Shown: positions 1-51,575 of the stretch, piece after piece
Layout of the letters: the number at the start of each line of letters is the position of its first letter
Numbering within the stretch: the stretch's first letter is position 1
Assembly: GCA_965117065.1 (NCBI GenBank)
Contig: OZ220751.1
Location: 1,789,807-1,853,806, forward strand
Length of the DNA: 64,000 nucleotides
Reading direction: 5' to 3'
From: an uncultured Allomuricauda sp.
GTDB taxonomy: Bacteria > Bacteroidota > Bacteroidia > Flavobacteriales > Flavobacteriaceae
Translations under genes and position numbers: made by a program
Notes under the pieces: generated by a model
Databases searched by the model: none
What the model saw: only the letters and a program-made list of their open reading frames with translations
Told to the model about the DNA's origin: nothing

Positions 1-529
1 AAACTCCCTATGGAGGAAGCTATTCTGCCGTATGCTTCTTCTGAAAAAGCATCGGTCAACAAATTTAAACTAGCTCCAAAAGCAGCAGCTCCATTAGTTG
101 AAGTTCCTACACCGCGTTGTAACTGGAGACTTTCCGTAGAAGATGCAAAATCGGGCATATTTACCCAAAACGTACCTTGCGACTCTGCATCGTTATAGGG
201 AATCCCATTAATGGTCACATTGACCCGGGTAGCATCACTTCCCCTAACCCGAATTCCAGTGTAACCTACTCCTGCTCCAGCATCGGAAGTAGTAACCACC
301 GCTGGTAAATAATTCAATAAAATAGGAATGTCTTGACCTAAATTACGAGGAGCAATAGTTTCCTTGTCCAAATTTGAAAAAGTAATCGGAAACTCTTTGG
401 TAACCCTGATTGCTTGTACCAATACCTCATCCAGTACAATTTTCTTGCCTTCGAGGGAATCCGTAGGATTTTGTTGTGCACTTATTGAAAGTGCAAGCCC
501 AAAAAGGGCTACAGTTGTGAATAAAGATG
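1..529 (-). CDS. TonB-dependent outer-membrane receptor, N-terminal part (gene runs off the left edge of the window); candidate thiamin-related outer-membrane transporter
   Basis: Missing from ORF track because its stop lies beyond position 1. Minus-strand translation from ATG at 529 gives MKTSLFTTVALFGLALSISAQQNPTDSLEGKKIVLDEVLVQAIRVTKEFPITFSNLDKETIAPRNLGQDIPILLNYLPAVVTTSDAGAGVGYTGIRVRGSDATRVNVTINGIPYNDAESQG..., i.e. signal peptide plus TonB-receptor plug domain. A TPP riboswitch lies directly upstream. Confidence 0.7.
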
Positions 530-629
530 TTTTCATTCGTAAAAAATGTTACGAATAAAAGGGGTTATTATTCTGGTTAAAAATTGATTTGTGTTTCTAA
601 GGAAACATAGAAATTCCAAGATGCGCTTA

Positions 630-710
630 GCGCAATCCCTTGGCAGCATTACCCGCCCAGGTTCATTGGGTATAATCTCAGCCTTTAAAAAGCACCCCTT
701 TGAGATGGGA
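630..710 (-). promoter_or_regulatory. TPP (thiamin pyrophosphate) riboswitch aptamer (THI-box) in the 5' leader of the TonB-dependent receptor gene
   Basis: Minus-strand RNA reads CAUCUCAAAGGGGUGCUUUUUAAAGGCUGAGAUUAUACCCAAUGAACCUGGGCGGGUAAUGCUGCCAAGGGAUUGCGC. It aligns block by block with the E. coli thiM aptamer (GGGGUGC, GGCUGAGA, UACCC, ACCUG, GGUAAUGC..GC.AAGGGA). Boundaries are approximate. Confidence 0.8.
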
Positions 711-810
711 CAAATGTAATGCGACAAAGTTATTTATCACAACAAAAAGTTGATGAAATAACATTTACCAATAGAAATAATTCAAATTCAACAAAAACTC
801 CGCGCTAAAT

Positions 811-840
811 GGAAAAAGGCTGCCGAAGCAGCCTTTTAAA
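811..840. terminator. Bidirectional rho-independent terminator-like hairpin
   Basis: GGCTGC-cgaa-GCAGCC perfect 6-bp stem with GAAA-type loop at 818-833. T-runs follow on both strands (TTTT on plus, TTTTT on minus). Confidence 0.4.
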
Positions 841-929
841 TTGCCAATAATCAATCAAATTATGGAGAAATAGGATTGCAGCTACAATTGGCAATCATGG
901 ATAATGCATGGTTAGTGTTTGCATAGCAT

Positions 930-1046
930 CATCCTTTTTTCTTTTGTTTATTATCTCGATATTCTTGTCTTAAAAAGGGCACCACCAGTACGATTGCAAC
1001 AATAAATGATAGAATACTCACAGCCAGAATTATGGTAAATAGCATT
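930..1046 (-). CDS. Possible small hydrophobic membrane peptide (38 aa), hypothetical
   Basis: ATG at 1046 to TGA at 930. Translation MLFTIILAVSILSFIVAIVLVVPFLRQEYRDNKQKKKG is one TM helix plus a basic tail. It is bracketed by terminator hairpins on both sides. Below the ORF-track size cut-off. Confidence 0.25.
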
Positions 1047-1091
1047 TTAAGTGTTTCTTTTTTTAGGACACTTATTTTTAAAATAAGTCAC

Positions 1092-1118
1092 AAAAAAAGG
1101 TCGTACTAAGTACGACCT
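1092..1118 (-). terminator. Rho-independent terminator of the DUF4301 operon
   Basis: Minus strand: AAGGTCGTACT-t-AGTACGACCTT palindrome followed by TTTTTTT, about 200 nt downstream of the DUF4301 stop. Confidence 0.55.
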
Positions 1119-1322
1119 TCTAACCAAATCAACCAACCAAAAAACTAAGCGTCCAAGCTTAGAGGTGTTTTATTATTTCCTACCGATAGTCTATTTTTTC
1201 TTGCAAGCATTTTTGTGTTGCCACTTATTTATGGGACACTGAATTTTTGACTTAGTCACATGGACCAAAAAAAAGCTCCCAAATCTATGGGAGCCTCAAC
1301 TGTTATAAAGATTACTTTGTTA

Positions 1323-2861
1323 TTATGCCTGATGGCTAGGCTTAAACAAGTCGTTCACCGTTTTTACCGGATTAAAGGTAACCAACGGCACTTCAACAAA
1401 AAGAGTGTTCCAAAAAGCCATGGCACCATTCCACAGTCCTGGGAGCTCTAATGCCTTAAGTTCTTTTCCTTCCTTGGTCTTTCCCGTGATAAAGCCTTGT
1501 TTCTCATCTACAAAATCCAAAAGATTGTACTTTTCACCTTCGTGGTTTTTAACCCCACAAATTAAATCTACTGGATTAAAATGGGTTGAATTTTTAAGGA
1601 TTCCAGCCTGTTCTTTATTGGTTAAATCGATTTGGGCCGATTCAATAATTTGAAGCGAAATATTGCCTTGATCATCACTTATCCAAAAAGGCCCTCCTCC
1701 GGGTTCCCCTTCGTTTTTTACCATCCCACAAACACGAATCGGCCTATTAATTTTATTCCTTAATACGGCAAGCTGCCCATGATCATCCAAACTAGCATAG
1801 TTCTCTGAAAACCGAACATTGAGTTCTTTTTCCAAAAAGGACTTGATCTTGCTTTTAAGTGTTTCAGAAACATCACCCTCTCCGAGAACAGTTGCATATT
1901 CAAATGCTTGGTCTTGTACCTTTTTTAAAACTCCTGCCAACATTTTTTTACTGTTGGCCACTGCTTCCAAATTTTGGTCAATGACCACATTGTCAATATT
2001 CTTGATAAAAATGATATCGGCATCTTGGTCATTGAGGTTCTCAATCAATGCACCATGTCCACCAGGTCTAAACAAAATAGAGCCATCTCCATTTTTAAAA
2101 GGCTTGTTTTCCATATCCACGGCTATGGTATCTGTGGATGATTTTTGGTTGGAGTAAGAAATGCTGAATTCTGTGTTCGTAGCTTGGGAAACCTTTGGCC
2201 CTGTCGAAGCATGCTCCGCTCTGAACATGGCATTATGCTGTTCGGAAATAGTAAAGTGAAGATTGGCCTTACCTGCTGTTTTGGCATAAAGGGCAGCTTC
2301 CTTTAAATGTTCCTCAAAAGGTGTGGCAGTCGAGTTTTCATATTTATGAAATGGTAGTAAACCTTTAGGAAAGAAACCATAGTTTAAGCCTTCAGCCACT
2401 AACATTTCCTTTACGAAAAGATAGACTTTCTCGTCCTTGTTCTCTGTTTTTCCAGCTATCCTTTCCATGATTATCCTATAGAATGGAAAGTTCTCCATTT
2501 CTTCAACGAATTTTTCTATCTCGGAATCAGCGGTCCTGTCTAAATAAGTGGCAAGTGTTTCTTTGGTGGGATTGTAGGTTTCCAAGAAGTTGAAAGCAGC
2601 TTTGAACATCCTTGATGCTGCCCCCGAGGCTGGGACAAACTTTAATAACTGAAGCGTTCCGCGGGTATCCTCAAAATACTGAATCAGATCGTTTTGCTCC
2701 TTCTCAGAAAACCGTAGAATTCCATCACCCACCACAGCCGCCTTGTTTAGGCCAACAAATGGGATTCCCGCTTTGAAGGTGGCGATTTGATTTATTACTT
2801 TTTCTTGGGAAATACCTTTTTTCCCAAGTTGTTCGAGGTCTTTTTGACTTAGGTCAATCAT
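1323..2861 (-). CDS. DUF4301-family protein (~512 aa), with motifs resembling UDP-sugar pyrophosphorylase-type nucleotidyltransferases
   Basis: ORF 1323..2891. The internal ATG at 2861 gives an ATGATTGA start/stop overlap with the upstream kinase gene (translational coupling). Motifs PASGAASRMF, RPGGHGAL and IKNIDNV resemble the G-rich loop, PDGHGD and SNIDNL motifs of UGPase/UAP-type enzymes. The gene is last in the pnuC operon. Confidence 0.55.
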   Translation of the reverse strand: MIDLSQKDLEQLGKKGISQEKVINQIATFKAGIPFVGLNKAAVVGDGILRFSEKEQNDLIQYFEDTRGTLQLLKFVPASGAASRMFKAAFNFLETYNPTKETLATYLDRTADSEIEKFVEEMENFPFYRIIMERIAGKTENKDEKVYLFVKEMLVAEGLNYGFFPKGLLPFHKYENSTATPFEEHLKEAALYAKTAGKANLHFTISEQHNAMFRAEHASTGPKVSQATNTEFSISYSNQKSSTDTIAVDMENKPFKNGDGSILFRPGGHGALIENLNDQDADIIFIKNIDNVVIDQNLEAVANSKKMLAGVLKKVQDQAFEYATVLGEGDVSETLKSKIKSFLEKELNVRFSENYASLDDHGQLAVLRNKINRPIRVCGMVKNEGEPGGGPFWISDDQGNISLQIIESAQIDLTNKEQAGILKNSTHFNPVDLICGVKNHEGEKYNLLDFVDEKQGFITGKTKEGKELKALELPGLWNGAMAFWNTLFVEVPLVTFNPVKTVNDLFKPSHQA

Positions 2862-3423
2862 GTTTATGGAGAAGTTTATCGATGTGTTCAACTGCGGTTT
2901 TGAGCCTTGCTTTTTTATCTCCTTTCAAGATAACGAAATTCCGATTATAATTTTTCAAGGTATTATGGAAATATGCAAACATCCGTTCTCTTTCATTGGG
3001 TTTATCCCTTAAATCATCGGCTTCCCAAGGCGTGTCTATATAAGTCAGAAAATATAGGTCATAGGTGTTCTCCAAGGCATATTTTTCCAGTAATGGGTCA
3101 CAATAGCCCAAGTAATAGGCTTCGGAATAAACTTTGGTTTCCAATAAATCCGTGTCACAAATAAGCACATCGGTTGCTTTCTGGGTCAGATTGTTCTCCA
3201 ATCCAATCTGTCCCTCTGCAATGGGCAACAAATCCTTGGGTTCACAGGTTTTGCGCTCGTTGTTCCATTTGTTCTGTAAATATTCACGCGCATACTCCGG
3301 TACCCATACCGTATTGTATTGTCTCGCTAGTTGCTGTGAAAGCGTGGTCTTTCCAGTAGATTCTGGTCCAAAAAGAACTACTTTAATAAGGTCTGAGGGC
3401 TCTTGCCCAAGTTTTTCTTCCAT
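2854..3423 (-). CDS. NadR-type ribosylnicotinamide kinase-like P-loop ATPase (stand-alone kinase domain, no NMNAT domain)
   Basis: 189 aa with Walker A GPESTGKTT near the N-terminus. It sits immediately downstream of pnuC. The annotated start overlaps pnuC by 46 nt, so the true start is probably a downstream non-ATG codon. Confidence 0.6.
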   Translation of the reverse strand: MEEKLGQEPSDLIKVVLFGPESTGKTTLSQQLARQYNTVWVPEYAREYLQNKWNNERKTCEPKDLLPIAEGQIGLENNLTQKATDVLICDTDLLETKVYSEAYYLGYCDPLLEKYALENTYDLYFLTYIDTPWEADDLRDKPNERERMFAYFHNTLKNYNRNFVILKGDKKARLKTAVEHIDKLLHKHD

Positions 3424-4016
3424 GCCTTATAGCCATAAATGGCAATTATGGTTAGTAAAAAATAGAGCAAAGAGCTAAAAATAAGTCCTTTGTACCAATA
3501 CAAAGGTACTGTGATAATATCACCCACAATCCAATAGACCCAGTTTTCCAACTTCTTTTTTGCCATTAACCACATCCCAACAAAAAAGATAGCCGTTGTT
3601 ATCGTATCAACGTAAGCTGTCCAAACATTGAATCGGTCTGCAAGAAAATATACAACAGAAACGAAAATGATAGTGCCCACAAATAATAGTATGGACCATT
3701 TTTTCTCATTTTTAGTGGTTCTTGTAATTGGCACAAAGTGGGTTTCGTCTACTTTGCGAGTCCACAGATACCACCCAACAATACTCATAACAAAGTAGTA
3801 AGTATTGATAAGCATATCTCCCAGTAGCCCCCAGAAAAGCAAAATGTAGGCAGCTATCCCTGTCCCGATTATTCCGGTTGGATATACCAATATATTCTCC
3901 CGCATGGAATACCAAACACTTAGCAAGGCGAAGACAACGCTAATGAGTTCCAGCACCACGATATGTGTTGGAATACCCTCGTATTGCGAAAAAATCCAAT
4001 CAAAAATGTGGCTCAT
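3378..4016 (-). CDS. pnuC: PnuC-family nicotinamide riboside (Pnu-type vitamin) transporter
   Basis: 212 aa multi-TM protein with the PnuC-like pattern ...LSVWYSMRENILVYPTGIIGTGIAAYILLFWGLLGDMLINTYYFVMSIVGWYLW... Adjacent to the NadR-like kinase. Confidence 0.75.
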   Translation of the reverse strand: MSHIFDWIFSQYEGIPTHIVVLELISVVFALLSVWYSMRENILVYPTGIIGTGIAAYILLFWGLLGDMLINTYYFVMSIVGWYLWTRKVDETHFVPITRTTKNEKKWSILLFVGTIIFVSVVYFLADRFNVWTAYVDTITTAIFFVGMWLMAKKKLENWVYWIVGDIITVPLYWYKGLIFSSLLYFLLTIIAIYGYKAWKKNLGKSPQTLLK

Positions 4017-4260
4017 ACCCGCTTCGATCAGATTTCACAATCTTCATCCCCAATACAACATGTTCCAAGGATCCAAAAGCCTCCTTTATTTCTGTCTGAA
4101 GTAACTCCATCACCTCGTCATAATCCCCGTACACTTGGGTACTTAATGGGTTTTCCAAAACCTTAAGACCTGAGGCTCTTAGCTTTTTAATAAACTCGAT
4201 GATTGGAGGCTCAAAATTATCCTGAAGAGGAGTCAAGGTCAATTCAACGGATATTCTCAT
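4000..4260 (-). CDS. MTH1187/YkoF-family small ligand-binding protein (UPF0045, thiamin-binding protein family)
   Basis: 86 aa: MRISVELTLTPLQ...SGLKVLENPLSTQVYGDYDEVMELL... matches the MTH1187/YkoF family pattern. It is the first gene of the operon and overlaps the pnuC start by 17 nt. Confidence 0.5.
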   Translation of the reverse strand: MRISVELTLTPLQDNFEPPIIEFIKKLRASGLKVLENPLSTQVYGDYDEVMELLQTEIKEAFGSLEHVVLGMKIVKSDRSGYEPHF

Positions 4261-4306
4261 GGGTTAAGATTCATTTTTAAGCAGCAAAGCTAGTAAAAAG
4301 ACCTTA

Positions 4307-4948
4307 TCAGTTCCCCATCATTTTAAAGGCAAAAACGCAGGTAAATCCTTCAAATTCTATAAATTCTATCTCGTAATGGGATTTTTTTCCTTTATATATA
4401 ATCTTGGCCACGGTTCGTTTGTCGTCAAAGGCAAAGTCCATAACGTCAATATGTCTTAAAAAGCTAAGACCTTGCTCTGCGTATATTTTATATAGGGATT
4501 CCTTGGCGCCCCAAACTATGGTTAGCTTTCTTATTATGGCATCAGTATTGGCCAATGTGCGATATTCTTCCAAGGGAGTAAATTTATTGGCAATGCGCAA
4601 AATCTTTTCCCGCTGCATTTCAATATCAATCCCAACCTCATCGGTCTTACTCACAATAATGCCTGTAAAATTGTGTGAATGCGTAATGGATATATGGTTC
4701 CCATCTTGCAGGTGCGGCTTCCCAAAACTATCATAATAAAGGTCCTGGTCCACATAGCCAGCTTCAGCCATAAGATGCCTTATACTTAAAAAAGCGCGTC
4801 GATGAAATTCTGATTTCATCCCATCCATCCTATTTTGACAATGCGGCGTAAGTTCAATGCCCTTGGAAAGTTCATCTTCAGGTTCAGTGACCTTCCAGAC
4901 ATATAGGCTGGTTGTAGGGGAGACCGTAATGGTTTTGTATAAGGGCAC
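4307..4948 (-). CDS. 4'-phosphopantetheinyl transferase (Sfp-type)
   Basis: 213 aa with GIDIE and WGAKESLYK motifs characteristic of the PPTase superfamily. Confidence 0.7.
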   Translation of the reverse strand: MPLYKTITVSPTTSLYVWKVTEPEDELSKGIELTPHCQNRMDGMKSEFHRRAFLSIRHLMAEAGYVDQDLYYDSFGKPHLQDGNHISITHSHNFTGIIVSKTDEVGIDIEMQREKILRIANKFTPLEEYRTLANTDAIIRKLTIVWGAKESLYKIYAEQGLSFLRHIDVMDFAFDDKRTVAKIIYKGKKSHYEIEFIEFEGFTCVFAFKMMGN

Positions 4949-4970
4949 GTCTAAATGTTAAGTGATTTCG

Positions 4971-4978
4971 TATCTTTG
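4971..4978 (+). promoter_or_regulatory. Bacteroidetes-type -7 promoter element (TAnnTTTG) upstream of ahcY
   Basis: TATCTTTG lies 44 nt upstream of the ahcY ATG. A TTTG is also present upstream, but at non-ideal spacing. Confidence 0.3.
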
Positions 4979-5022
4979 CTGACTGGTATAGCTAAGCTAC
5001 ATAAAGTTAATTAAAATAAGAT

Positions 5023-6339
5023 ATGAGCACAAAGACAATTCCTTATGTACCGTATAAGGTAAAAGATATTTCCCTTGCGGATTGGGGCCGAAAAGAGATT
5101 GAATTGGCTGAGGCTGAGATGCCCGGTTTAATGGCGTTGCGGGAAGAGTATAAGGATGAGCAACCTTTAAAGGGTTCGCGAATTGCCGGATGCTTGCATA
5201 TGACCATCCAAACTGCAGTTTTAATCGAAACTTTAATTGAATTAGGTGCTGATGTTACCTGGAGTTCCTGCAATATTTTCTCAACCCAAGACCACGCCGC
5301 CGCCGCAATAGCTGCAGCTGGAATCCCTGTATATGCTTGGAAGGGAATGACTGAGGAAGAGTTTGATTGGTGTATTGAGCAAACTTTGTTCTTTGGAGAA
5401 GACAGACAGCCTTTGAATATGATTTTGGACGACGGTGGGGATTTAACCAATATGGTATTGGATCAGTTTCCTGAATTGGCCGCTGGAGTGAAAGGATTAT
5501 CTGAAGAGACCACAACTGGGGTGCATCGTTTATATGATCGAGTGAAAAATGGGACCCTTCCTATGCCAGCCATCAACGTGAACGATTCTGTAACGAAGTC
5601 CAAATTTGATAATAAATACGGCTGCCGTGAGAGTGCTGTGGATGCGATAAGACGGGCCACAGATACTATGTTGGCCGGGAAACGTGTAGTTGTTGCCGGT
5701 TATGGCGATGTTGGAAAAGGTACCGCAGCTTCCTTTAGAGGAGCGGGAGCTATCGTTACAGTTACCGAAATAGACCCAATCTGTGCACTTCAGGCTTGTA
5801 TGGATGGTTATGAAGTAAAGAAATTGGAAACTGTTGTGGGTAATGCCGATGTAGTAATTACTACTACCGGAAACAAAGACATTATTCGCGAGGAGCACTT
5901 CAGGGCGTTAAAGGATAAAGCCATTGTTTGTAACATTGGTCACTTTGACAACGAGATTGATATGGCCTGGTTAAACGGAACCTATGGCAGTACCAAAGAC
6001 GAGATTAAACCTCAAGTTGACAAATATACCATTGATGGCAAGGATGTTATTATTTTGGCCGAGGGTAGATTGGTGAATTTGGGCTGTGCCACCGGTCACC
6101 CAAGTTTTGTGATGAGTAATTCCTTTACTAACCAAACATTGGCACAAATTGAGCTTTGGAACAATAGTGACAAGTATGAAAACGAGGTATATATGCTGCC
6201 CAAACATTTGGATGAAAAGGTGGCCAAATTGCACTTATCGCGATTAGGGGCTGAGTTAACCGAACTCAGGAAAGATCAAGCGGAGTATATTGGCGTTACC
6301 GTTCAAGGCCCTTTTAAGCCAGAGTACTACAGATACTAG
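5023..6339 (+). CDS. ahcY: Adenosylhomocysteinase
   Basis: 438 aa with full-length AhcY-like sequence including the NAD-binding [10 protein letters not shown] segment. Confidence 0.95.
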
Positions 6340-6380: not shown

Positions 6381-6410
6381 GACCCTTGCAGTTATGTGAG
6401 GGTTTTTGTT
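6381..6410. terminator. Weak terminator-like hairpin between convergent ahcY and the response regulator gene
   Basis: ACCCT...(12-nt loop)...AGGGT followed by TTTTTGTTT. Confidence 0.3.
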
Positions 6411-7165
6411 TACATATCCAGCCACTTTTTAAAATTGGTGGTGCGTTCCCTAGATACAATAATCTGTTCCTCTTCCTTTGGAAGTATCTTGAGCAACAAA
6501 CGACTGTTAAAGTAACTATGGATTTCCACAACTGCTTTTACAGAGACCATAAATTTGCGATTGATTCGAAAAAAATGGATGGGATTCAAAATGTTCTCTA
6601 ATTGATCAATAGTGTACTCAATGGGATAGGATTGCCCAGCATGGGTAAACAAGCAAATCATTCCTTCGTGTGACTTAAAAAAGGCAATGTCTTCTACATT
6701 AAAGGATCTAAACTGATTGCCAACCTTCACCATAAACCGATGCTTATACTCCTTATGGAATAGCTGTTTTAAGTGCTCCAAATCTTCTGTAGCGCCGCGC
6801 CCATTGCGAGTCACATTTTTTTTGAATTTTTCCAGCGCAGTCTTCAAATCTGTTTTGACGATAGGTTTGAGTAAATAATCCACTCCATTGTATTTAAATC
6901 CACGAATGGCAAACTCATTATAAGCTGTAGTAAATATTACAGGAGGATGTTCTTCCATTCCATCCAGAATATCAAATCCATAACCATCGTTGAGTTGGAT
7001 ATCCAAAAAAACGAGGTCTGGAAGGGCATTCGTCTTAAACCATTGTGTTCCGTTCTCTACCGAATTGATACTTGCCACAATATCAATTTCCGGCGCAAGC
7101 TCCCCCACCAACTGAGTTAACCTCTTGGAAGCAAATTCCTCATCCTCAACAATTACTGCTTTCAT
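6410..7165 (-). CDS. LytTR-family two-component response regulator
   Basis: 251 aa with an N-terminal receiver domain (VIVEDEE...DLVFLDIQL) and a C-terminal LytTR DNA-binding domain. Confidence 0.85.
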   Translation of the reverse strand: MKAVIVEDEEFASKRLTQLVGELAPEIDIVASINSVENGTQWFKTNALPDLVFLDIQLNDGYGFDILDGMEEHPPVIFTTAYNEFAIRGFKYNGVDYLLKPIVKTDLKTALEKFKKNVTRNGRGATEDLEHLKQLFHKEYKHRFMVKVGNQFRSFNVEDIAFFKSHEGMICLFTHAGQSYPIEYTIDQLENILNPIHFFRINRKFMVSVKAVVEIHSYFNSRLLLKILPKEEEQIIVSRERTTNFKKWLDM

Positions 7166-7167
7166 AT

Positions 7168-8316
7168 TTAAGATATGGCTATCAAATTCATGTCTGTTAT
7201 TTCCTTATCCAGAAGGGGAATAATCACTTCAAAAAAATTATCCTCTTCTCGTACCAAAACCTGCTTGTTGGTATAATAGGAATATCGCTTTTTTATATTT
7301 TTTAACCCTAATCGGGTAGTTTCCTCATTCAACTGCCTTTTTCGAAGATTGTTTTTTACCACTAAGGCCTCATCGCCAATTGTTGAAATCTGAACTTCCA
7401 AAGGCTTTTCTTTACTATAATAGTTGTGCTTGAGTGCATTTTCCACCAGCATTTGAACGGATAGGGTTGGAATTAGAAAATATTCTGTTGACACTTGGAT
7501 GTCCGATTTAATCACCACAGCATCCTTATGCCGTACATTCATCATAAACACAAAAGAATCCAAAAACCCCAGTTCTTTTTTTAGCGTTACCAAGTCTTGC
7601 TCGCGATGGTCTAAAATGTAACGGTAACTTGATGCCAATCTGGTCACAAAATCTGAGGCCAAATCGCGATCCTCGTACATCAAAGACGTTAGGGTGTTTA
7701 GACTGTTAAACAAAAAATGAGGGCTTATCTGATTCTTTAATGAAGCATATTTAGAGGCCAGCATTTCCCGTTTCAAATCCTCCATTTGCTTGGTCAATTC
7801 ATCCCTTTGGTTCATGGAAAAGTGGAACATATTAAAAAAAATGACGGTCAACCCAAGCAAAATGGCTCTGAAAAAATCGATTGTAAATTCTATAAGAGGT
7901 GGGTCATCACAAATAATACCCCAACTTTCCCTAAAAACAAACAGTCCCAAATAATACACCAAAGCAGTTGTTGGGGCCAAAATGGCAATATTCTTTCCTA
8001 TAATCACAATGCTACTCTTAAAATAGAGACCTCCTTTTGGCCGTTGTTTTTTCAACAACCAATCATTGGTTTCCCAAGTAAGCATAAACAAAAAAAATGC
8101 GCTGACATAGTAGAATACGCTTGTCGCATTAAAAATGCCTTCAACCATATCATCATCCTGTTCCATTGTAATCTTGACCAGAAAAAAGACCACATTGATG
8201 ACCAGTAATCTGAACAATACTTTATAAATCCCTTTCTTCTTCAACATAAAATCTGCTTGGCGTAAAGATACACATCGACAAGTTTCTCTTTTGTCATAGT
8301 CTACTTCAACTGTCAA
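7168..8316 (-). CDS. Sensor histidine kinase (LytS/YehU-type, multi-TM N-terminus)
   Basis: 382 aa with an N-terminal hydrophobic region and the His_kinase motif SPHFLFNSLNTL. Its stop is 3 nt from the response regulator start. Confidence 0.8.
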   Translation of the reverse strand: MTVEVDYDKRETCRCVSLRQADFMLKKKGIYKVLFRLLVINVVFFLVKITMEQDDDMVEGIFNATSVFYYVSAFFLFMLTWETNDWLLKKQRPKGGLYFKSSIVIIGKNIAILAPTTALVYYLGLFVFRESWGIICDDPPLIEFTIDFFRAILLGLTVIFFNMFHFSMNQRDELTKQMEDLKREMLASKYASLKNQISPHFLFNSLNTLTSLMYEDRDLASDFVTRLASSYRYILDHREQDLVTLKKELGFLDSFVFMMNVRHKDAVVIKSDIQVSTEYFLIPTLSVQMLVENALKHNYYSKEKPLEVQISTIGDEALVVKNNLRKRQLNEETTRLGLKNIKKRYSYYTNKQVLVREEDNFFEVIIPLLDKEITDMNLIAIS

Positions 8317-8492: not shown

Positions 8493-10874
8493 ATGAAAAA
8501 TACCTTTTTGGCCATTGTGCTTTTAATCTCTTCCATGGGATTTTCCCAAACGGGAATCATTAAAGGAATTGTTCTGGACAAACAATCGGAAAGTCCATTG
8601 GAGGGCGCCACCATAGAGCTTTTGAACATGGAAATTGCCACTGGTGTAATCACAGATTTTGACGGTCAATTTACCTTAAAGAATGTTCCAATTGGCAGGC
8701 AAAGTATCCGGATAAGCTATATAGGGTTCGAGGATACATTTGTTCCCAATATTGAGGTTACCACTGGAAAAGATGTGGTGCTCAACATTACTTTAAGGGA
8801 AAGTTTCAACGCGCTAAAGGAAGTCGTGGTTACTTCAAATTCCAATTTGGACAAACCGAGAAACAAAATGGCAACGGTTTCTGCACGGCAATTTGGGATA
8901 GAGGAAGTGGGCAGGTTTTCTGGAGGTCGGGGAGACATTGGAAGATTGGCTGCTAATTTTGCCGGCGTTTCAGCTCCTGATGACAGTAGAAACGATATCA
9001 TTATTCGTGGAAATTCACCAACGGGCCTACTCTGGAGAATAGAAGGAATACCTGTACCCAATCCCAATCACTATTCCTCCGCAGGCACAACTGGTGGCCC
9101 TGTATCTGCCTTGAATCCAAACATGCTCAAAAATTCGGATTTCATTACCTCAGCATTTCCAGCCGAATATGGCAATGCCATAGGTGGAGTTTTCGATATT
9201 GGTTTGCGAAATGGAAATACAGATGACTACGAATTTGCAGCCCAAGTTGGTGCATTTTCAGGTGTGGAGGCCACAGGAGAAGGTCCTTTGGGCAGTAAAG
9301 GTTCTTTTTTGGTTGCTGGAAGGTATTCACTCGTGGGTTTAATTGGGTCTGCCGGGGCGGGAACCTCTGCTAACCCAAATTATGGAGACTTCTCTTTTAA
9401 TCTCAACTTTGGTAAGGGAAAACTTGGCAGCCTATCCCTTTTTGGAATCGGTGGCACCTCCGATATTGACTTCTTGGGGGATAGCATCGAGGCGGATGAT
9501 CTATTTGCTGCAGAAGATGAAGATGCTTATGTAGAATCTGGCTTTGGGGTTATCGGGGTTAAACATACACTTCCGTTTGGAAAAAAATCTTATTTGAGAA
9601 CAGTGGTAGGTTATTCTACTTCATCCAGTAAGTATACCGCAGACCGCTATTTTGAAAAGGATACGCCGCAGGAAACCATTTTGTTATATACCAAGGATGA
9701 TGAAACGGAAAATCGCCTTACATTCTCTACCTTGTTCAATACTAAAATCAACAACAAAATAACATTTAGGACAGGGTTACAGTACGAAAACTTGTCCTTG
9801 GATTATAGCAATCAAGATCGAGAAGAACAAGCTGATTTAGATGGTGACGGATTCTCAGACCTTGTCACCCTAATAGATATGGACGAAAGTCTAGCTCTTC
9901 TTCAACCCTTTGCCCAGGGCCAATTTAGACTATCTAAGAAACTCACACTAAATACGGGCGTACATGGATTGTATAGTAACTTAAACAAGCAATTTGTATT
10001 TGAACCACGAGCCGGACTCAGTTTTGAAGCCAATGACAACCATAGGTTCAGCTTGGGGTATGGCATTCACTCCCAAAATATTCCAACTCCCATTCTATTT
10101 CTAAACGAGGATATTAATGGCAATCCTGTGCAAACCAACAGGGATTTGGAGTTTGTTAAAAGCGCACATTACGTTTTTGGATATGATGTAAAACTGGGAG
10201 ACAAGTGGCGGGCAAAACTAGAAGCTTATTACCAAGATATAGACAATGTCCCTGTTGATTCGTTTTCCTCAAGCTATTCAACCTTGACCGAAGGAGCCGA
10301 TTTCGGATTTAGTACGGATGCAGTATCCTTGGTCAATCAGGGTACAGCATACAATCAAGGAGTTGAGCTAACTTTAGAGAAATTCTTTAGTCAAGATTAT
10401 TACTTGTTGCTCACCTCCTCTTTTTATCAAAGTAAGTACACGGGTAGTGATACTATTGAACGGAACTCGCCATTTAACAATGGCCAAGTAATCAATCTAC
10501 TTGCAGGTAAGGAATTTGCTATAGGAAAATCTAGGAAAAACAAGTTTTTTGTAGATACACGGGCCACCTATTCAGGCGGGAGATACTATACGCCAATAGA
10601 TCTGGAAACTTCAAGGAATATGGGGTATGAAGTATTGTTTGATAATCTAGCCTATAGCCAACAATACGATAGCTATTTCAGGTGGGATGTGAAGTTAGGT
10701 CTTAAAATAAACAGTAAGGGTAAAAAACAATCGCATCAATTTTACGTGGACATGCAGAACCTAACTAATAAAAACAACATCTTTTCCAGAAGGTATAATA
10801 GACTAACCAACAACATTGATCGCGAAGACCAGATTGGTTTCTTTCCGGATTTTGGTTACCGATTTCAATTCTAG
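8493..10874 (+). CDS. TonB-dependent outer-membrane receptor with N-terminal carboxypeptidase-regulatory-like domain
   Basis: 793 aa: signal peptide, then CarbopepD_reg-like region (GIIKGIVLD...GATIELLN), plug and barrel, with a terminal aromatic residue (…YRFQF). Confidence 0.85.
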   Translation: MKNTFLAIVLLISSMGFSQTGIIKGIVLDKQSESPLEGATIELLNMEIATGVITDFDGQFTLKNVPIGRQSIRISYIGFEDTFVPNIEVTTGKDVVLNITLRESFNALKEVVVTSNSNLDKPRNKMATVSARQFGIEEVGRFSGGRGDIGRLAANFAGVSAPDDSRNDIIIRGNSPTGLLWRIEGIPVPNPNHYSSAGTTGGPVSALNPNMLKNSDFITSAFPAEYGNAIGGVFDIGLRNGNTDDYEFAAQVGAFSGVEATGEGPLGSKGSFLVAGRYSLVGLIGSAGAGTSANPNYGDFSFNLNFGKGKLGSLSLFGIGGTSDIDFLGDSIEADDLFAAEDEDAYVESGFGVIGVKHTLPFGKKSYLRTVVGYSTSSSKYTADRYFEKDTPQETILLYTKDDETENRLTFSTLFNTKINNKITFRTGLQYENLSLDYSNQDREEQADLDGDGFSDLVTLIDMDESLALLQPFAQGQFRLSKKLTLNTGVHGLYSNLNKQFVFEPRAGLSFEANDNHRFSLGYGIHSQNIPTPILFLNEDINGNPVQTNRDLEFVKSAHYVFGYDVKLGDKWRAKLEAYYQDIDNVPVDSFSSSYSTLTEGADFGFSTDAVSLVNQGTAYNQGVELTLEKFFSQDYYLLLTSSFYQSKYTGSDTIERNSPFNNGQVINLLAGKEFAIGKSRKNKFFVDTRATYSGGRYYTPIDLETSRNMGYEVLFDNLAYSQQYDSYFRWDVKLGLKINSKGKKQSHQFYVDMQNLTNKNNIFSRRYNRLTNNIDREDQIGFFPDFGYRFQF

Positions 10875-30059: not shown

Positions 30060-31160
30060 TTATTCCTTAGTAATCAGCTTCCCTTTGTGCTTGGCCTCCT
30101 CATTACGATCAATGGTGTGGCTTGGTCTGGACCATTTTGGTTTTTCGCCTTGGGCTTCTAATTGGGAATCTGAAGCTTCAACCGTTTTTGGTTGTGATAT
30201 TTTGGTAAAGGGCTTTTGTGGATTCAATCCCAAGAGTTCGAACATTTCCATGTCCTCGTTCACATCCGGGTTTGGAGTGGTCAATAATTTATCCCCTGCA
30301 AAAATAGAGTTGGCCCCTACAAAAAAGCACATAGCCTGTCCTTCCCTACTCATCTCGGTTCTCCCAGCGGACAGTCTTACTTGTGTCTCTGGCATAACAA
30401 TTCGTGTTGTGGCTACCATGCGCACCATATCCCAGATGGAAATGGGTTCAATATCTTCCATGGGAGTGCCTTCAACCGCCACCAACGCATTAATTGGGAC
30501 CGATTCCGGTTGTGGGTTCAAAGAGGCCAAAGCAACCAACATGCCCGCTCTATCCTCCAGCTTTTCGCCCATGCCAATAATTCCACCGCTACAAACAGTA
30601 ACGTTGCTTTTACGTACATTGTCTATGGTATCCAAACGATCCTGAAAGGCCCGGGTGGAGATTACATCTTTATAATAATCCTCTGAAGTATCCAGATTAT
30701 GGTTGTAAGCATATAAGCCCGCTTCTGCCAGTCGATTGGCTTGGTTTTCGGTAAGCATACCTAAAGTACAGCACACCTCCATATCCAATTTGTTGATGGT
30801 ACGTACCATTTCCAATACTTGATCAAACTCTGGGCCATCCTTCACATTTCTCCACGCCGCACCCATGCAGACACGAGAACTACCAGAAGCTTTGGCCCTA
30901 AGGGCCTGTGCTTTCACTTGCTGAACGGACATTAAATCATTCCCCTCAATATCCGTATGATATCTAGCAGCCTGTGGACAATAGCCACAATCCTCTGGAC
31001 AACCACCGGTTTTGATGGATAGCAAGGTGGAAACCTGTACCGTATTGGGGTCATGATGTTGCCTATGCACGGAAGCGGCGTCATATAACAATTCCATTAA
31101 AGGTTTGTTGTAGATTTCCAGAATCTCTTCCTTGGTCCAGTTGTGTCTTGGTGCAATCAT
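30060..31160 (-). CDS. bioB: Biotin synthase with ~45-aa hydrophilic C-terminal extension
   Basis: 366 aa with the radical-SAM CPEDCGYC motif and full BioB core. Confidence 0.95.
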   Translation of the reverse strand: MIAPRHNWTKEEILEIYNKPLMELLYDAASVHRQHHDPNTVQVSTLLSIKTGGCPEDCGYCPQAARYHTDIEGNDLMSVQQVKAQALRAKASGSSRVCMGAAWRNVKDGPEFDQVLEMVRTINKLDMEVCCTLGMLTENQANRLAEAGLYAYNHNLDTSEDYYKDVISTRAFQDRLDTIDNVRKSNVTVCSGGIIGMGEKLEDRAGMLVALASLNPQPESVPINALVAVEGTPMEDIEPISIWDMVRMVATTRIVMPETQVRLSAGRTEMSREGQAMCFFVGANSIFAGDKLLTTPNPDVNEDMEMFELLGLNPQKPFTKISQPKTVEASDSQLEAQGEKPKWSRPSHTIDRNEEAKHKGKLITKE

Positions 31161-31225
31161 AGGTTGAATCTAAATCAAGGTCAAAAATAGTCCTTATTCC
31201 GAAAACACTGCAATGATATGCCGTT

Positions 31226-31258
31226 AAAAAGAAAAAGGCCAGGACATATGTCCTAGCC
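31226..31258 (-). terminator. Rho-independent terminator after the flotillin gene
   Basis: Minus strand: GGCTAGGACAT/ATGTCCTGGCC hairpin (one mismatch) followed by TTTTTCTTTTT. Confidence 0.5.
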
Positions 31259-31283
31259 TTTGCTTTATGCAAAATAGCTATGA

Positions 31284-32717
31284 TTATTCTGCTTTTTTAT
31301 CTGATTTCGGCTTACTATCTCCTGTTTTTTGTTCGGAACCATCAGACACATCCTTTCCTTTTAGATATTCTGGCAGTTGCATTCCTGCCATATTGAACAT
31401 CTCTTGTAATGGGGGTACGGATTTATACATTCCAGAGATAAAATTGGCCGTAGAATTTTTACCATCTTCAGATTTAGCTCCAGAATCCCAAACAGTGATC
31501 TTATCAATCTTAATGTTTTTGATGGCCTCGGCTTGCTTCTCTACTAATTCTGGCAGTTTGTCTGCAATCAATAATAACACCGCATCTTTGGGGTTATCTC
31601 CAGCAGCTTTTACAATCCGATCCAATCCTTCAGCTTGTTTGGTCAATACCTCAAAGATTCCTTTTGCCTCAGCTTCTGCCTTGAATAAAATTGCATCGGC
31701 CTCCCCTTTTGCTTTCCTACGAATCATTTCAGCCTCGGCTTCTGCATCAATCTCTACTTTTTTCTTATCTATTTCCGCTGGCACAACAATATCCGCCATT
31801 TGAGAACTTCTTTCCCGTTCCGCCCTTGCAATTTCAGCATCTTTCTCTGCGGCATAAGATTCCTCCAAAGCTTTTGCTGTTTGTACTTTTTCCGCTGCAA
31901 TTGCAGTTCGCTCAGCTTCAGCTTCACGCTGTCTTCGTAAGGAATCTGAGTTTGCCACATCAATCTTCGCAACATTTTCCCCTTCTACAGCTTTTGCATT
32001 GGCAGCGGCAACCTGTGTCCTCTCATCTTGGACCGCGTTCGCCTCTCCAATGGAACCATCTCTGTTTTTTTCAGCAACAGATTTACGCGCGGCATTAATG
32101 GCGTGCGCAGCAGCCTCCTTACCTAAAGCCTCTATATAACCTGACTCGTCTACAATATCCGTGATGTTTACGTTGATGAGTTTGAGACCCACTTTTTTCA
32201 ACTCGGATTCTACACTTTGGGAAATATTGGACAGAAATTTATCCCTGTCCGAATTGATTTCTTCAATATCCATGGAAGCAACAACCAGACGTAGCTGACC
32301 GAAAATAATTTCCTTGGCCAAATCCTGCACCTCCTGCATTCCCAAACCTAAAAGTCGTTCTGCAGCGTTTTGCATAATTCCAGGTTCGGTAGAAATACCA
32401 ATGGTAAATCTTGAAGGCACGTTCACCCGAATATTCTGCCTACTTAGTGCATTGGTTAAGTCTACCTCTATGGAAATAGGGGTCAAATCCAGAAACTCAT
32501 AGTCTTGGATTACCGGCCAAATAAAAGCCGCCCCGCCATGAATACATTTAGCAGAATTACCAGAACCAACTTTTCCATAAACCACCAGAATTCGGTCTGA
32601 AGGACATCTTTTGTATCTCCTAATAAAGGAAATGATAATGATAAAGGCAAAAAGAATGGCAAAGCCAATAGTTAAGAGCGAAGCTCCTCCGCCCAGTTGT
32701 AAGGGTATTAATAGCAT
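31284..32717 (-). CDS. Flotillin-family SPFH/band-7 protein (YqiK/FloT-like)
   Basis: 477 aa with an N-terminal TM, SPFH domain and a long Ala/Glu-rich coiled coil. Confidence 0.85.
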   Translation of the reverse strand: MLLIPLQLGGGASLLTIGFAILFAFIIIISFIRRYKRCPSDRILVVYGKVGSGNSAKCIHGGAAFIWPVIQDYEFLDLTPISIEVDLTNALSRQNIRVNVPSRFTIGISTEPGIMQNAAERLLGLGMQEVQDLAKEIIFGQLRLVVASMDIEEINSDRDKFLSNISQSVESELKKVGLKLINVNITDIVDESGYIEALGKEAAAHAINAARKSVAEKNRDGSIGEANAVQDERTQVAAANAKAVEGENVAKIDVANSDSLRRQREAEAERTAIAAEKVQTAKALEESYAAEKDAEIARAERERSSQMADIVVPAEIDKKKVEIDAEAEAEMIRRKAKGEADAILFKAEAEAKGIFEVLTKQAEGLDRIVKAAGDNPKDAVLLLIADKLPELVEKQAEAIKNIKIDKITVWDSGAKSEDGKNSTANFISGMYKSVPPLQEMFNMAGMQLPEYLKGKDVSDGSEQKTGDSKPKSDKKAE

Positions 32718-32721
32718 ATGG

Positions 32722-33300
32722 TTATTTATTTAGGAGTTTAACAATCAATATTCCGTTATCGGTAACTTCTTTTACTTGGATCACGTTACCTTGTTTAAGG
32801 TCCACATTCTCATCCGTCAAAGCCTCTAATTCGCGTAGGGTACCTTGCACCTTAATGCTCACTTTTCCAATACTAGATCTATTGGCTCCAATTGTGAGGT
32901 ATACCTCCCCAATCTGATCGAGGGCATTTTTAAGTTTTAAAGTACCACTGCTTTGCATTTTGCTTAGGTAGTAAAACAGAGATGCCATGAGCAACATCAT
33001 AAGTAATCCACAGACCACGGAGATAAGAATGGTCATACCATTGGATAGACCGTTTTCCATGCATGAAATACCTGACCACCCAAAAATTGTAAAAAAGCCC
33101 ATTAAATTCTTAAAGGAAAGAAATTGAAATCCTATTCCGCCATCTCCTTCAACGTCTGCATCTATATCTCCGCTTACATCTTCGATATCTCCCCCAACAA
33201 AGGTCAAAACCATCAAAACAACAAGCACAATCGAGCCTGCGATTGCCGTAATCCAATAAACTTTTTCAAACAGCGTAAGTGTGGTATACCATTCTTCCAT
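32722..33300 (-). CDS. NfeD/YqiJ-like membrane protein (flotillin partner)
   Basis: 192 aa with TM helices plus a C-terminal OB-fold-like region. It lies immediately upstream of and co-oriented with flotillin. Confidence 0.6.
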   Translation of the reverse strand: MEEWYTTLTLFEKVYWITAIAGSIVLVVLMVLTFVGGDIEDVSGDIDADVEGDGGIGFQFLSFKNLMGFFTIFGWSGISCMENGLSNGMTILISVVCGLLMMLLMASLFYYLSKMQSSGTLKLKNALDQIGEVYLTIGANRSSIGKVSIKVQGTLRELEALTDENVDLKQGNVIQVKEVTDNGILIVKLLNK

Positions 33301-33366
33301 AATCCGTAGTATTTAGGTTGTTATTTTGATGAAAAAAGATAAGACTTTAAATGAAATATCTGTGTC

Positions 33367-34524
33367 TTATTTGGAAAGTAAAATGGAAACTGCATTCCCG
33401 CCAAAACCTACTGCGTTGACCATAATCTTTTGAATGGGTTTGGCTCCCATATCTTGCCTTAAAAAAGGAGTAGTAATGTAGGTTTGATGCTGTAACATAA
33501 GCAAGGCCATTTCAACACTTAATAGTCCCGAGGCACCAAAGGTGTGGCCTACTTTCCATTTATTGGTTGTTAAAAAGGGTTTTTTGTTACAAAAGATTTT
33601 TTCAATAGCATTAAATTCCGACAAATCTCCCTTAACCGTACCTGGTGAGTGCAGAACAATAGCATCTACCTGCGAAGGGTCTAAATCGCCCAGAGCCATC
33701 TTCATAGAAGCTTGGAAGCACCGGGCATCAGTTGAAATGGAAACATTGTGTTCCAAAGGTTCGGTGGCATATCCAATTCCCACAATAAAAGCCAAAGCAT
33801 TTGCCTTTTCTCCTTTTTCCAAACATGCCATAGCGGCACCTTCCCCCAAGACCATTGAATTTTGCTTTTTGGTCAAGTCCAATGCTCGACAAGGAAATTC
33901 ATTGACTTCTTTTGCATATATTTTCAATGCATGCATCTGCGCAATGGTAAAAGGGGTTAAGGGTGCTTCGCTCCCTCCTACCAAGAATTTATCGGTTAAT
34001 CCGCTTTGAATCCAAGCCACCGCATTCAGCACCGCATGTAGGGCCGTGGAACAGGTGATTGAATGGGAAATTTCTGGTCCCTTCGATTTTAAATCATGGG
34101 CTACCCAGGAAGAGATATTGCCTAAAGTGGTTGTCGGTGAAGACAGGGTTGAAGATTTTCCTTCCTTTAGAAATTCCCCGTGATATTTTTCAAAAAGAGC
34201 CGTAGCTCCACGAGAAGACCCAATGTTGATTCCAAAATTGGCATCGCCCGTCCACTTTGCGCATTCAATAACCTTTCTGGCCGTACATAATGCGAAAAGC
34301 ACAGAATCATCCAAATGATGGTATTTTGAGTCTGATTGCCTTAACGTATTAACTTGCAACTTTGTTGATGCCGGAAGATTAGAAGCCCATACCTCTTGAT
34401 TCCCAATCTGGGTTTGGACTAAGTTATGCCCCTCCTTTTGATAGGATTCCCATACATCCTCAGGGGCACTCCCCAAGGCGGAAATAGACGATAAACTGGT
34501 AATGGAAACGGGTTCTTTCAGCAT
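33367..34524 (-). CDS. Beta-ketoacyl-ACP synthase I/II-like condensing enzyme, short form, embedded in the biotin operon
   Basis: 385 aa with active-site Cys in ITCSTALHA, and His in HSPGTVKGD and VGHTFGASG (Cys-His-His triad of FabB/FabF). The start is 11 nt after the bioA stop. A terminator hairpin follows. Confidence 0.7.
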   Translation of the reverse strand: MLKEPVSITSLSSISALGSAPEDVWESYQKEGHNLVQTQIGNQEVWASNLPASTKLQVNTLRQSDSKYHHLDDSVLFALCTARKVIECAKWTGDANFGINIGSSRGATALFEKYHGEFLKEGKSSTLSSPTTTLGNISSWVAHDLKSKGPEISHSITCSTALHAVLNAVAWIQSGLTDKFLVGGSEAPLTPFTIAQMHALKIYAKEVNEFPCRALDLTKKQNSMVLGEGAAMACLEKGEKANALAFIVGIGYATEPLEHNVSISTDARCFQASMKMALGDLDPSQVDAIVLHSPGTVKGDLSEFNAIEKIFCNKKPFLTTNKWKVGHTFGASGLLSVEMALLMLQHQTYITTPFLRQDMGAKPIQKIMVNAVGFGGNAVSILLSK

Positions 34525-34535
34525 TTCTATATCAT

Positions 34536-35822
34536 CTAAACAATTTCCAGTGCTGATTTTATAGCATTATAAATCTCCTTCATCTGCTCTTTGCTTGTAA
34601 TGAATGGAGCCAATATATAAATGGTATTCCCCAATGGCCTAAGAAAGATTCCTTGGTCCATAAAATGCCTAAAAAGTTTATCTCTTAGGTTTCCATAGCG
34701 CTCCATTTGCACCTTTAAATCCAAAGCATAAATAACGCCCAATTGTCTTGTTGCACCTACTCTAGGGTGGTTTTTAATTTCTGCATCAAATTCTTGGTGC
34801 CATTGTATAATGTTTTGTATGTTTTTTTGAATCCCTTCTGTTTGCAAGAGTTCCAAAGCTGCCAAAGCGGCGGTGCAGGCCAGTGGATTTGCTGTATACG
34901 TGTGTCCATGAAACAGACCTTTTGCGATATCATCACTATAAAAAGCTTGATAAACATTCTGAGTGCAGGAGGTAAGGCCCATCGGAACAAGTCCAGCTGT
35001 CAAGGCCTTGGAAAGACATATGATATCCGGTTTTGTTTCCATATGATCAGAAGCAAAATACTTTCCTGTCTTGCCAAATCCTGTCATCACCTCATCTGCT
35101 ATTGTTAGGACATGATGTTTTTTCAATAGCGACAGAATTTGATTAAGTCCATCCGCATCATGCATTTTCATCGCAGCGGCTCCTTGAACCAAAGGTTCAT
35201 ATATAAATCCGGCAACGTTTGCCTTTTGCAATCTAACTTCCAACTGATTCAACAGAATTGGCAAATTTTCCCGAGTTGGAACAGGAATACGTTCTACTTG
35301 AATAAAAAACTCCTCAAAGGGGCCATTGTAAACAGAAAGACCAGAAACAGACATCGCACCAAAAGTGTCTCCATGAAATCCCTCTTCAAAGGCCAATAGC
35401 ACGTTGCGCTTTTCCCCTCGGTTAAAATGGTATTGCAAAGCCATTTTAATCCCAATTTCCGTTGCTGTGGAACCATTATCTGAAAAGAATAGCTTCTCCT
35501 GATTCTCAGGTAAAACTTTGACTAGTTCCTCTGAGAGTTTTACGGCTGGCTCATGGGTAAACCCACTAAAAACTACCTGATCCAGTTGTTGCATCTGTTC
35601 CCCTACTTTTTCCAAAATGTAAGGATGGCAATGTCCATACACACAAGTATACCAAGAGGATATGCCGTCAATATATTCTTTGCCATTTTCATCAAACAGC
35701 ATAGCTCCTTTTGCCTTGGAAATGGCCAACATTTCAGGATGGGTCTTATGCTGGGTTAAGGGGTGCCAAAGGTGCTTTTTGTCCCTGTCCGATAAATTTT
35801 CCAATGTATGGGGATTAGCCAA
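34536..35822 (-). CDS. bioA: Adenosylmethionine-8-amino-7-oxononanoate aminotransferase
   Basis: 428 aa class-III aminotransferase with the characteristic BioA N-terminus (W.P.TQ...). Confidence 0.9.
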   Translation of the reverse strand: MANPHTLENLSDRDKKHLWHPLTQHKTHPEMLAISKAKGAMLFDENGKEYIDGISSWYTCVYGHCHPYILEKVGEQMQQLDQVVFSGFTHEPAVKLSEELVKVLPENQEKLFFSDNGSTATEIGIKMALQYHFNRGEKRNVLLAFEEGFHGDTFGAMSVSGLSVYNGPFEEFFIQVERIPVPTRENLPILLNQLEVRLQKANVAGFIYEPLVQGAAAMKMHDADGLNQILSLLKKHHVLTIADEVMTGFGKTGKYFASDHMETKPDIICLSKALTAGLVPMGLTSCTQNVYQAFYSDDIAKGLFHGHTYTANPLACTAALAALELLQTEGIQKNIQNIIQWHQEFDAEIKNHPRVGATRQLGVIYALDLKVQMERYGNLRDKLFRHFMDQGIFLRPLGNTIYILAPFITSKEQMKEIYNAIKSALEIV

Positions 35823-35873
35823 ATGTTACATTTTATCTATCTTGCAAAGATGGTGATTTAAACCTAAAAATAC

Positions 35874-35896
35874 TCAACCTCAACCTCAACCTCAAA
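35874..35896. repeat. Hexanucleotide tandem repeat (TCAACC)x3.5 in the bioA / GT39 divergent intergenic region
   Basis: Read directly from the sequence: tcaacctcaacctcaacctcaaag, abutting the GTG start of the GT39 gene. Confidence 0.8.
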
Positions 35897-51500: not shown

Positions 51501-51575
51501 AAACACTTTATTTTGCTTATCCGAAAAACGTAGCTGCAAAAGTACAAAAATTATGCTGATTAGCAGTATTTATAG

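Follow-up and report, generated by a model that had tools for sequence, protein, structure and literature searches.

Transporters of the Pnu family and RNK-type kinases together mediate facilitated diffusion, in which the imported compound is trapped metabolically (PMC5749112). In the NadR proteins such a kinase forms the C-terminal part of a larger polypeptide that also includes a nicotinamide mononucleotide (NMN) adenylyltransferase (NMNAT) domain with the HIGH motif and a helix-turn-helix domain. A different group of nucleotidyltransferases comprises the eukaryote-type uridine diphosphate (UDP)-sugar pyrophosphorylases of the PF01704 family (UGP, UAP1/AGX and USP) and the GalU, RmlA and GlgC enzymes (PF00483); in Fkp and AmgK-MurU a pyrophosphorylase is coupled to a kinase of the GHMP or APH type. 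Relatives of both groups are encoded side by side by a four-gene unit at positions 1323-4260, on the minus strand, of a 64,000-nt stretch of contig OZ220751.1 from an uncultured Allomuricauda sp. (this whole stretch is the window below), the nearest relatives of which are Flagellimonas/Muricauda species (Flavobacteriaceae). The unit specifies a small MTH1187/YkoF-family protein, a Pnu-family transporter, a stand-alone NadR-RNK-type kinase and a DUF4301 protein. We present evidence that DUF4301 is most likely a new, divergent bacterial form of UDP-sugar pyrophosphorylase. We further propose, with a confidence that is evenly balanced, that the locus is not one pathway but a compact operon of mixed content, in which DUF4301 would act as a nucleoside diphosphate (NDP)-hexose (UDP-glucose) pyrophosphorylase outside the chemistry of the transporter-kinase cassette.

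The DUF4301 gene is the last of the unit (1323..2861) and its product matches PF14134 at E 2.8e-216; the ATG at 2861 is the start in all homologues, giving 512 aa, and the upstream TTG is not used. Sequence searches of the PDB recovered nothing significant for this protein, and family profiles gave only marginal matches to UDP-glucose pyrophosphorylases (UGPases; E 0.046 and 0.64). A fold search with the predicted structure confirmed a nucleotidyltransferase fold of the UGP/UAP/USP type for the model, as had been suspected in an earlier interpretation made from the letters alone (the sequence-only reading), and no HIGH-motif NMNAT-type structure was among the matches. The three motifs that this reading had picked out by eye, PASGAASRMF, RPGGHGAL and KNIDNV, proved to be invariant or nearly so in 126-145 DUF4301 representatives of 39-50% identity. 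In profile alignments with UGPases, Q239 corresponds to the Q of 'FNQS', PGGHGAL to 'PPGHGD', KNIDNV to 'ANSDNL', HFNPVD to 'FNTNN', and FNPVKTVNDLL to 'FLPVKTxSDLL', which bears the catalytic lysine; all of these aligned motif residues are invariant or nearly so. Counted individually in the same representatives, K500, G268-H269-G270, N288 and N291 never vary, and at least 90% have D290. Hidden Markov model alignments to 2i5k, 7ppr and 5weg likewise display the catalytic lysine motif PVK(T/S)xxDLL, the GHG and the NxDN, and the DUF4301 positions opposite the uracil- and sugar-contacting residues of UGPases are invariant. In the model the strand 72-76, the invariant loop P77-ASGAASR-M85 and the helix that follows it occupy the place expected of the nucleotide loop, the consensus of which is altered.

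Despite this shared core, DUF4301 differs from the eukaryote-type enzymes in several respects. Its identity to them is 10-18%, its nucleotide loop reads P-A-S-G-A-A-S-R in place of G-G-x-G-T, and it has an additional helical insertion (295-371) and a family-specific, invariant ELPGLWNGAM..W motif; R376 and K166 are invariant too. It ends 12 residues past the catalytic lysine and thus is without the C-terminal beta-helix domain of the UGPases (2i5k has ~105 more residues). Relative to GalU, RmlA and GlgC it is ~200 residues longer, owing to N-terminal and helical additions, and it lies nearer to the eukaryotic UDPGP branch than to GalU. Unlike the eukaryote-type families, it is bacterial: a search at E<=1e-3 gathered 3,759 clusters at 50% identity, spread across Bacteroidota, Acidobacteriota, Syntrophales, a 'Deltaproteobacteria' metagenome-assembled genome and Kapabacteria. 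In the literature we found no functional study of DUF4301/PF14134 and one incidental mention in proteomics, namely the detection of the protein in a rumen Prevotella proteome (PMC7035244). A eukaryote-type UDP-sugar pyrophosphorylase fold gives this large uncharacterised family a directly testable function.

The genomic contexts of DUF4301 outside Flavobacteriaceae were surveyed in 66 lineages, clustered at 70% identity. In none of them is pnuC or the kinase gene found beside DUF4301, which is a stand-alone gene almost everywhere outside that family. Seven lineages place it next to genes for glycogen, NDP-sugar or hexose-1-phosphate metabolism. In one (L163) DUF4301 follows a GT3 glycogen synthase gene (PF05693, 605 bits) of the same strand at a distance of 61 nt; in a Prevotella locus (L075) GT35 phosphorylase and GT3 glycogen synthase genes start ~1.3 kb away; in L168-170 the divergent neighbour encodes glycogen phosphorylase, and in L176 an isoamylase gene is found at 1.2 kb. 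Acidobacterial loci (L165-167) possess the order RmlB-RmlC-DUF4301 with overlaps of 4 nt and 1 nt (TIGR01181, 483 bits; TIGR01221, 237 bits), on Thermoanaerobaculia-type contigs at L165:6350-9629 and L166:5350-8629; RmlA is not encoded in these loci, and neither rmlA nor rmlD is nearby in L165 and L166. A galactokinase gene precedes DUF4301 by 51 nt in L058, and L177 has the order DUF4301-GT2-methyltransferase-PMT_2. The common denominator of these seven contexts is NDP-glucose. The proposal of the sequence-only reading that DUF4301 would convert NMN to nicotinamide adenine dinucleotide (NAD) was thus not borne out: no NAD gene recurs beside DUF4301 in the non-Flavobacteriaceae loci examined. 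With the window protein, the DUF4301 proteins of the sugar contexts share 41-51% identity and every motif residue; hence we treat the family as one of a single function.

A second scan, with queries from lineages that lack the cassette, returned 80 metagenome loci; within 6 kb of DUF4301, none of them encodes PnuC, the kinase or the MTH1187-like protein. Galactokinase adjacency as a general rule was rejected, being found in 0 of these 80 loci. Among 89 non-Flavobacteriaceae Bacteroidota loci the immediate neighbours include no recurrent partner, the commonest being divergent RelA/SpoT, TPR proteins and a radical-SAM protein. In L178, DUF4301 is followed after 18 nt by a CN_hydrolase-family gene (6485-7270; 261 aa), and a 48%-identical homologue occurs ~1.7 kb upstream of DUF4301 in L131 (3522-4274).

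On the basis of fold, motifs and contexts, the reaction of DUF4301 would most likely be nucleoside triphosphate (NTP) + hexose-1-phosphate to NDP-hexose + pyrophosphate, and our best guess is that uridine triphosphate (UTP) and glucose-1-phosphate are used to generate UDP-glucose. In lineages without GlgC this product would feed glycosyltransferases, GT3-type glycogen synthase among them, making DUF4301 a candidate NDP-glucose source for glycogen synthesis in Bacteroidota. UDP-glucose-dependent glycogen synthesis was reportedly shown biochemically in Prevotella bryantii by Lou et al. in 1997. GlgC is missing from Bacteroidetes (PMC10395257), which have a GT3 glycogen synthase, the type that uses UDP-glucose in eukaryotes (PMC11046441). 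A VFDB-based survey, itself weak evidence, recorded galU in one of four columnaris-group Flavobacterium species (PMC12087154). Separately, the window encodes at 50691-51539 (minus strand) a 282-aa protein that consists solely of a GT5 starch/glycogen-synthase N-terminal domain (PF08323, 3.8e-50) and is apparently the 'GlgA-GT5 fragment' conserved in Bacteroidetes (PMC11046441); its gene is flanked by those for DUF4270 (48862-50685) and panC (51591-52451), with glmS (46898-48745) past DUF4270.

The two genes preceding DUF4301 belong to well-defined families. The Pnu protein (212 aa, 3378..4016, minus strand, annotated as PnuC) matches PF04973 at 1.7e-49 and TIGR01528 with 92.8 bits (cut-off 42), and aligns to the PnuC structure 4QTN at 3.1e-7. 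Its sixth transmembrane helix bears W-V-Y-W-I-V-G-D opposite the WALWIVVN of 4QTN, so that it combines PF04973 with the WxxW(x)3D/N motif of the family (PMC5749112). The final D is the residue seen at this place in the thiamine transporter PnuT (PMC5749112), so that the substrate may be of either the PnuC or the PnuT type. The kinase (189 aa, 2854..3423, minus strand) matches PF13521 (AAA_28, 1e-43) and TIGR01526 (1.9e-31); its alignments to the NadR models are confined to the C-terminal RNK part (164-320 of the 325 positions in TIGR01526, and 233-409 of 411 in the other). Its matches to the NadR chains of the PDB (1e-15 to 1e-8; 9x6f 1.1e-15, 8x7f 6.6e-12, 1lw7 2.4e-10) always fall in their C-terminal RNK halves, with the Walker A, EY.R.Y, DTD..T and W..D.LR motifs in common. 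As it aligns solely to this part it has no NMNAT domain, which agrees with its earlier description as an RNK-only NadR relative, and PF01467 (CTP_transf_like, the HIGH-motif NMNAT fold) was matched by none of the four proteins. The pairing of a Pnu gene with that of an RNK-type kinase, through which the imported compound would be trapped metabolically, recalls PnuC plus NadR salvage (PMC5749112). From their family membership we infer that the two form a cassette for uptake and trapping, in which the compound that diffuses through the Pnu channel and is trapped by 5'-phosphorylation would be a cationic riboside, nicotinamide riboside being the likeliest. The MTH1187-like protein probably binds the same compound, as its own family would suggest.

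A survey of 80 species loci, taken from at least 598 matches, showed PnuC, kinase and DUF4301 to be adjacent in 59, of which 41 also have the MTH1187-like gene; in five loci PnuC accompanies DUF4301 but the kinase is missing, and in 16 PnuC and the kinase are both missing. Given this recurrence, the arrangement is not due to chance. Every cassette-bearing locus is from Flavobacteriaceae, and 14 of the 16 cassette-free loci are from other families (Saprospiraceae, Prolixibacteraceae, Prevotella, Lentimicrobiaceae, Cytophagales). Outside Flavobacteriaceae, though not within them, DUF4301 occurs away from pnuC, an outcome that the sequence-only reading had said would count against its proposal. 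Within the family, two Aquimarina species (L044 and L046) have the gene of an Sfp-type transferase directly before DUF4301 and are devoid of the cassette, which three other Aquimarina possess. In Flavobacterium selenitireducens (L050) PnuC and DUF4301 are kept and the kinase core is deleted in frame, only vestiges of the kinase termini remaining attached: the N-terminal extension of its DUF4301 protein (L050:7932-9563) aligns to the C-terminal kinase tail of fused relatives (such as L055:7431-9545), which indicates that the core was lost in frame from a fused ancestor. The retention of DUF4301 in these three species, together with its stand-alone occurrence almost everywhere else, argues for its independence from the cassette. 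Overlap as such is no sign of a common pathway here, since in the Flavobacterium operon a PcrB-family (GGGP-synthase-like) gene overlaps pnuC by 8 nt (L055:6120-6854; L050:6591-7346) and DUF4301 shares 1 nt of its stop codon with an RF-1-domain (ArfB-like) gene (L055:9545-9946).

Several points weigh against assigning DUF4301 to UDP-glucose synthesis. The substrate specificity of the protein is not deducible from sequence. It does not reach PF01704 (14.2 bits, E 0.018; cut-off 22), and its PASGAASRMF loop departs from LxGGxGTxMG, the correspondence being one of place in the model rather than of residue alignment. The sugar contexts concern just 7 of the 66 lineages, the other 59 being uninformative, and as they were found partly by targeted searches their enrichment is no more than suggestive. 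As RmlB normally acts on dTDP-glucose, a nucleotide other than UTP may be used. Finally, kinase and DUF4301 form a single open reading frame of 699-704 aa in 14 of the 59 cassette-bearing species, spread over at least three genera (Flagellimonas, Croceivirga and ten Flavobacterium). Gene fusion normally signals consecutive steps; the sugar reading leaves this one unexplained, and its persistence is a prediction of a two-step enzyme.

This fusion speaks for the alternative that DUF4301 joins the kinase product (NMN or another riboside 5'-phosphate) to an NTP to yield a dinucleotide (NAD or an analogue), as a functional analogue of NadR with a UDPGP-fold domain for the HIGH-motif NMNAT. Like NadR, the fused proteins link the kinase to a nucleotidyltransferase-fold domain; unlike NadR, they are without the HIGH-motif NMNAT and helix-turn-helix domains, have the kinase before the nucleotidyltransferase in reverse of the NadR order, and contain a partner of the GT-A/UDPGP fold with sugar-related contexts elsewhere. 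The absence of any link to pnuC or RNK in the 66 outside lineages, of which seven show glycogen or NDP-sugar genes in place of a recurrent NAD gene, speaks against such an enzyme, as do the retention of DUF4301 where the kinase core or the cassette was lost and the invariance of the positions aligned to the uracil and sugar contacts of UGPases. Furthermore, a family with one conserved motif set is unlikely to have a separate function in Flavobacteriaceae. We therefore regard such dinucleotide synthesis as unlikely, if the most substantial of the alternatives; a shade less probable still is the specific version in which the RNK-type kinase and DUF4301 of Flavobacteriaceae, be they separate, translationally coupled or fused in a given species, would be a two-step NadR analogue acting on imported and phosphorylated nicotinamide riboside, with the UDPGP/GT-A-fold domain replacing the HIGH-motif NMNAT and with NAD or a uridine-containing dinucleotide as its product. 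Were it true, this two-step enzyme would be a previously unseen non-homologous route to a pyridine dinucleotide.

Under the mixed-operon interpretation, the co-transcription of DUF4301 with the kinase and their occasional fusion would reflect operon packing and not consecutive chemistry. The two genes overlap by 8 nt at ATGATTGA, and junction alignments show that the fusions come from 1-2-nt changes that delete the TGA of this sequence, with no linker; they are thus mechanically easy to form, which is why we put them down to packing. An AF2 model of the 699-aa fusion (pLDDT 68.5, pTM 0.57) is too poor for domain packing to be read from it. The recurrent NadR-type kinase fusion is either a new enzyme of cofactor salvage or a caution that, in compact operons, fusions may mislead pathway inference.

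The fusion could be squared with the sugar-nucleotide contexts if cassette and DUF4301 formed one UDP-sugar salvage route in which, much as with Fkp and AmgK/MurU, a sugar or an amino sugar is imported, phosphorylated and activated, or in which uridine salvage feeds the NTP substrate. A transporter, a kinase and a pyrophosphorylase are the standard layout of sugar salvage, the 699-704-aa proteins have the kinase plus pyrophosphorylase architecture of Fkp and AmgK-MurU, the Pnu protein is of a SWEET-like fold, and the RNK domain has been likened to thymidylate kinase in a review. Several differences make this route improbable in our view, and more so than a dinucleotide synthetase. The kinase displays the EY.R.Y, DTD..T and W..D.LR motifs of bona fide NadR proteins and has a P-loop NadR-RNK fold in contrast to the GHMP or APH kinases; to our knowledge there is no anomeric sugar kinase of the P-loop NMP-kinase fold. 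Unlike in Fkp and AmgK-MurU, the fusion is linkerless, arising through 1-2-nt changes at an overlapping stop/start, and some species (L050) do without the kinase. Nucleoside salvage, for its part, would not be consecutive with a UGPase step, and the WxxWxxxD motif of the Pnu protein suits a cationic substrate (PMC5749112).

The first gene of the unit (4000..4260, minus strand) encodes 86 aa that pass the Pfam gathering scores of the MTH1187/YkoF thiamine-binding family (PF01910, 6.3e-7, 29.7 bits, cut-off 24.9; PF07615, 5.6e-5, 24.0 bits, cut-off 21); its match to TIGR00106 is under the cut-off and those to PDB sequences are marginal. Downstream of the unit, at 619..709 on the same strand, a thiamine pyrophosphate (TPP) riboswitch forms the leader of a TonB-dependent receptor gene, of which the 5' part (1..535, minus strand, by sequence inspection) lies in the window and the remainder runs beyond it. 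The element matches the full length of RF00059 with 50.7 bits, below the gathering score of 54.3, at E 4.6e-8; the L002 orthologue of the receptor matches the Plug and TonB_dep_Rec_b-barrel domains. The TPP motif followed by the receptor, a pair that itself comes after DUF4301, was found in 51-57 related Flavobacteriaceae loci; in 51 loci the core motif is conserved ahead of this receptor, so that the element is very probably genuine. At the gathering threshold Rfam does not call it here or in six relatives, and flavobacterial TPP elements may be systematically under-called. The sequence-only reading was hence very probably right about the presence of a nearby TPP riboswitch; control of the operon by it was rejected, as it lies downstream with the terminator at 1272-1297 in between, and no riboswitch was found upstream of the operon. 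The pairing of receptor and operon is kept across genera together with greA, HIT-family, GFO/IDH/MocA oxidoreductase, S-adenosylhomocysteine hydrolase and phosphopantetheinyl transferase genes; as these are equally kept, ancestral gene order suffices to account for it.

That the cassette serves thiamine, with Pnu as a PnuT, the MTH1187/YkoF-like protein binding thiamine or its hydroxymethylpyrimidine moiety and the kinase trapping a thiamine-type compound in concert with the TPP-riboswitch receptor, would suit the family of the first gene, the terminal D of the Pnu motif, the receptor on the same strand and the scoring of Bacteroidetes pnuC as a B1-uptake gene in marine B1 studies (PMC12442306), yet it is very unlikely given the position of the riboswitch past the terminator, the wider synteny block and the homology of the kinase to nicotinamide riboside kinases. 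We know of no P-loop thiamine kinase. In the 17.5-kb Flavobacterium locus L050 we also observed three copies of the Flavo-1 RNA (RF01705, 43-52 bits; 54-138, 357-450 and 10423-10511), one of which sits in the receptor leader, between the TPP element and the gene itself.

Direct inspection of the junctions gave overlaps of 17 nt between the first gene and pnuC (ATGAGCCACATTTTTGA), 46 nt between pnuC and the kinase gene and, as noted above, 8 nt between the kinase gene and DUF4301. These pairwise overlaps on the minus strand upheld the initial description of the locus, and along with the recurrent PnuC-kinase-DUF4301 adjacency they support the view that the four genes are one tightly packed transcription unit. 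An intrinsic terminator (1272..1297, minus strand) with a 10-bp stem, five GC pairs and a following T-run closes the operon; it begins 26 nt past the DUF4301 stop codon and is the top-scoring site within 400-5200. The Bacteroidota promoter consensus is TAnnTTTG. A by-eye reading found TAGCTTTG, which fits it, at 4285..4292 (minus strand), 25 nt 5' of the first ATG of the unit, as a candidate -7 box. The gene of an Sfp-type 4'-phosphopantetheinyl transferase (4307..4948, minus strand; PF01648, 1.5e-11) lies 46 nt upstream of the unit on the same strand; it is syntenic in nearly all Flavobacteriaceae loci and possibly co-transcribed with the four genes. Inspection by eye also shows a short hydrophobic open reading frame of ~38 codons (930-1050, minus strand) in the interval from the operon terminator to the TPP element; immediately 5' of this frame is another hairpin (1145-1162) that resembles a terminator.

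Homologues of glycogen, rml or galK genes were not found within the 64-kb window. Just past the S-adenosylhomocysteine hydrolase gene are genes for a LytTR-type response regulator (6410-7165, minus strand) and a His_kinase-family sensor (7168-8316, minus strand). Farther along, within 30060-37381, a biotin cluster of bioB (30060-31160), a ketoacyl-synthase-like gene (33367-34524) and a class-III aminotransferase gene (34536-35822) is followed by a PMT_2 (ArnT-like) GT-C glycosyltransferase gene (35897-37381).

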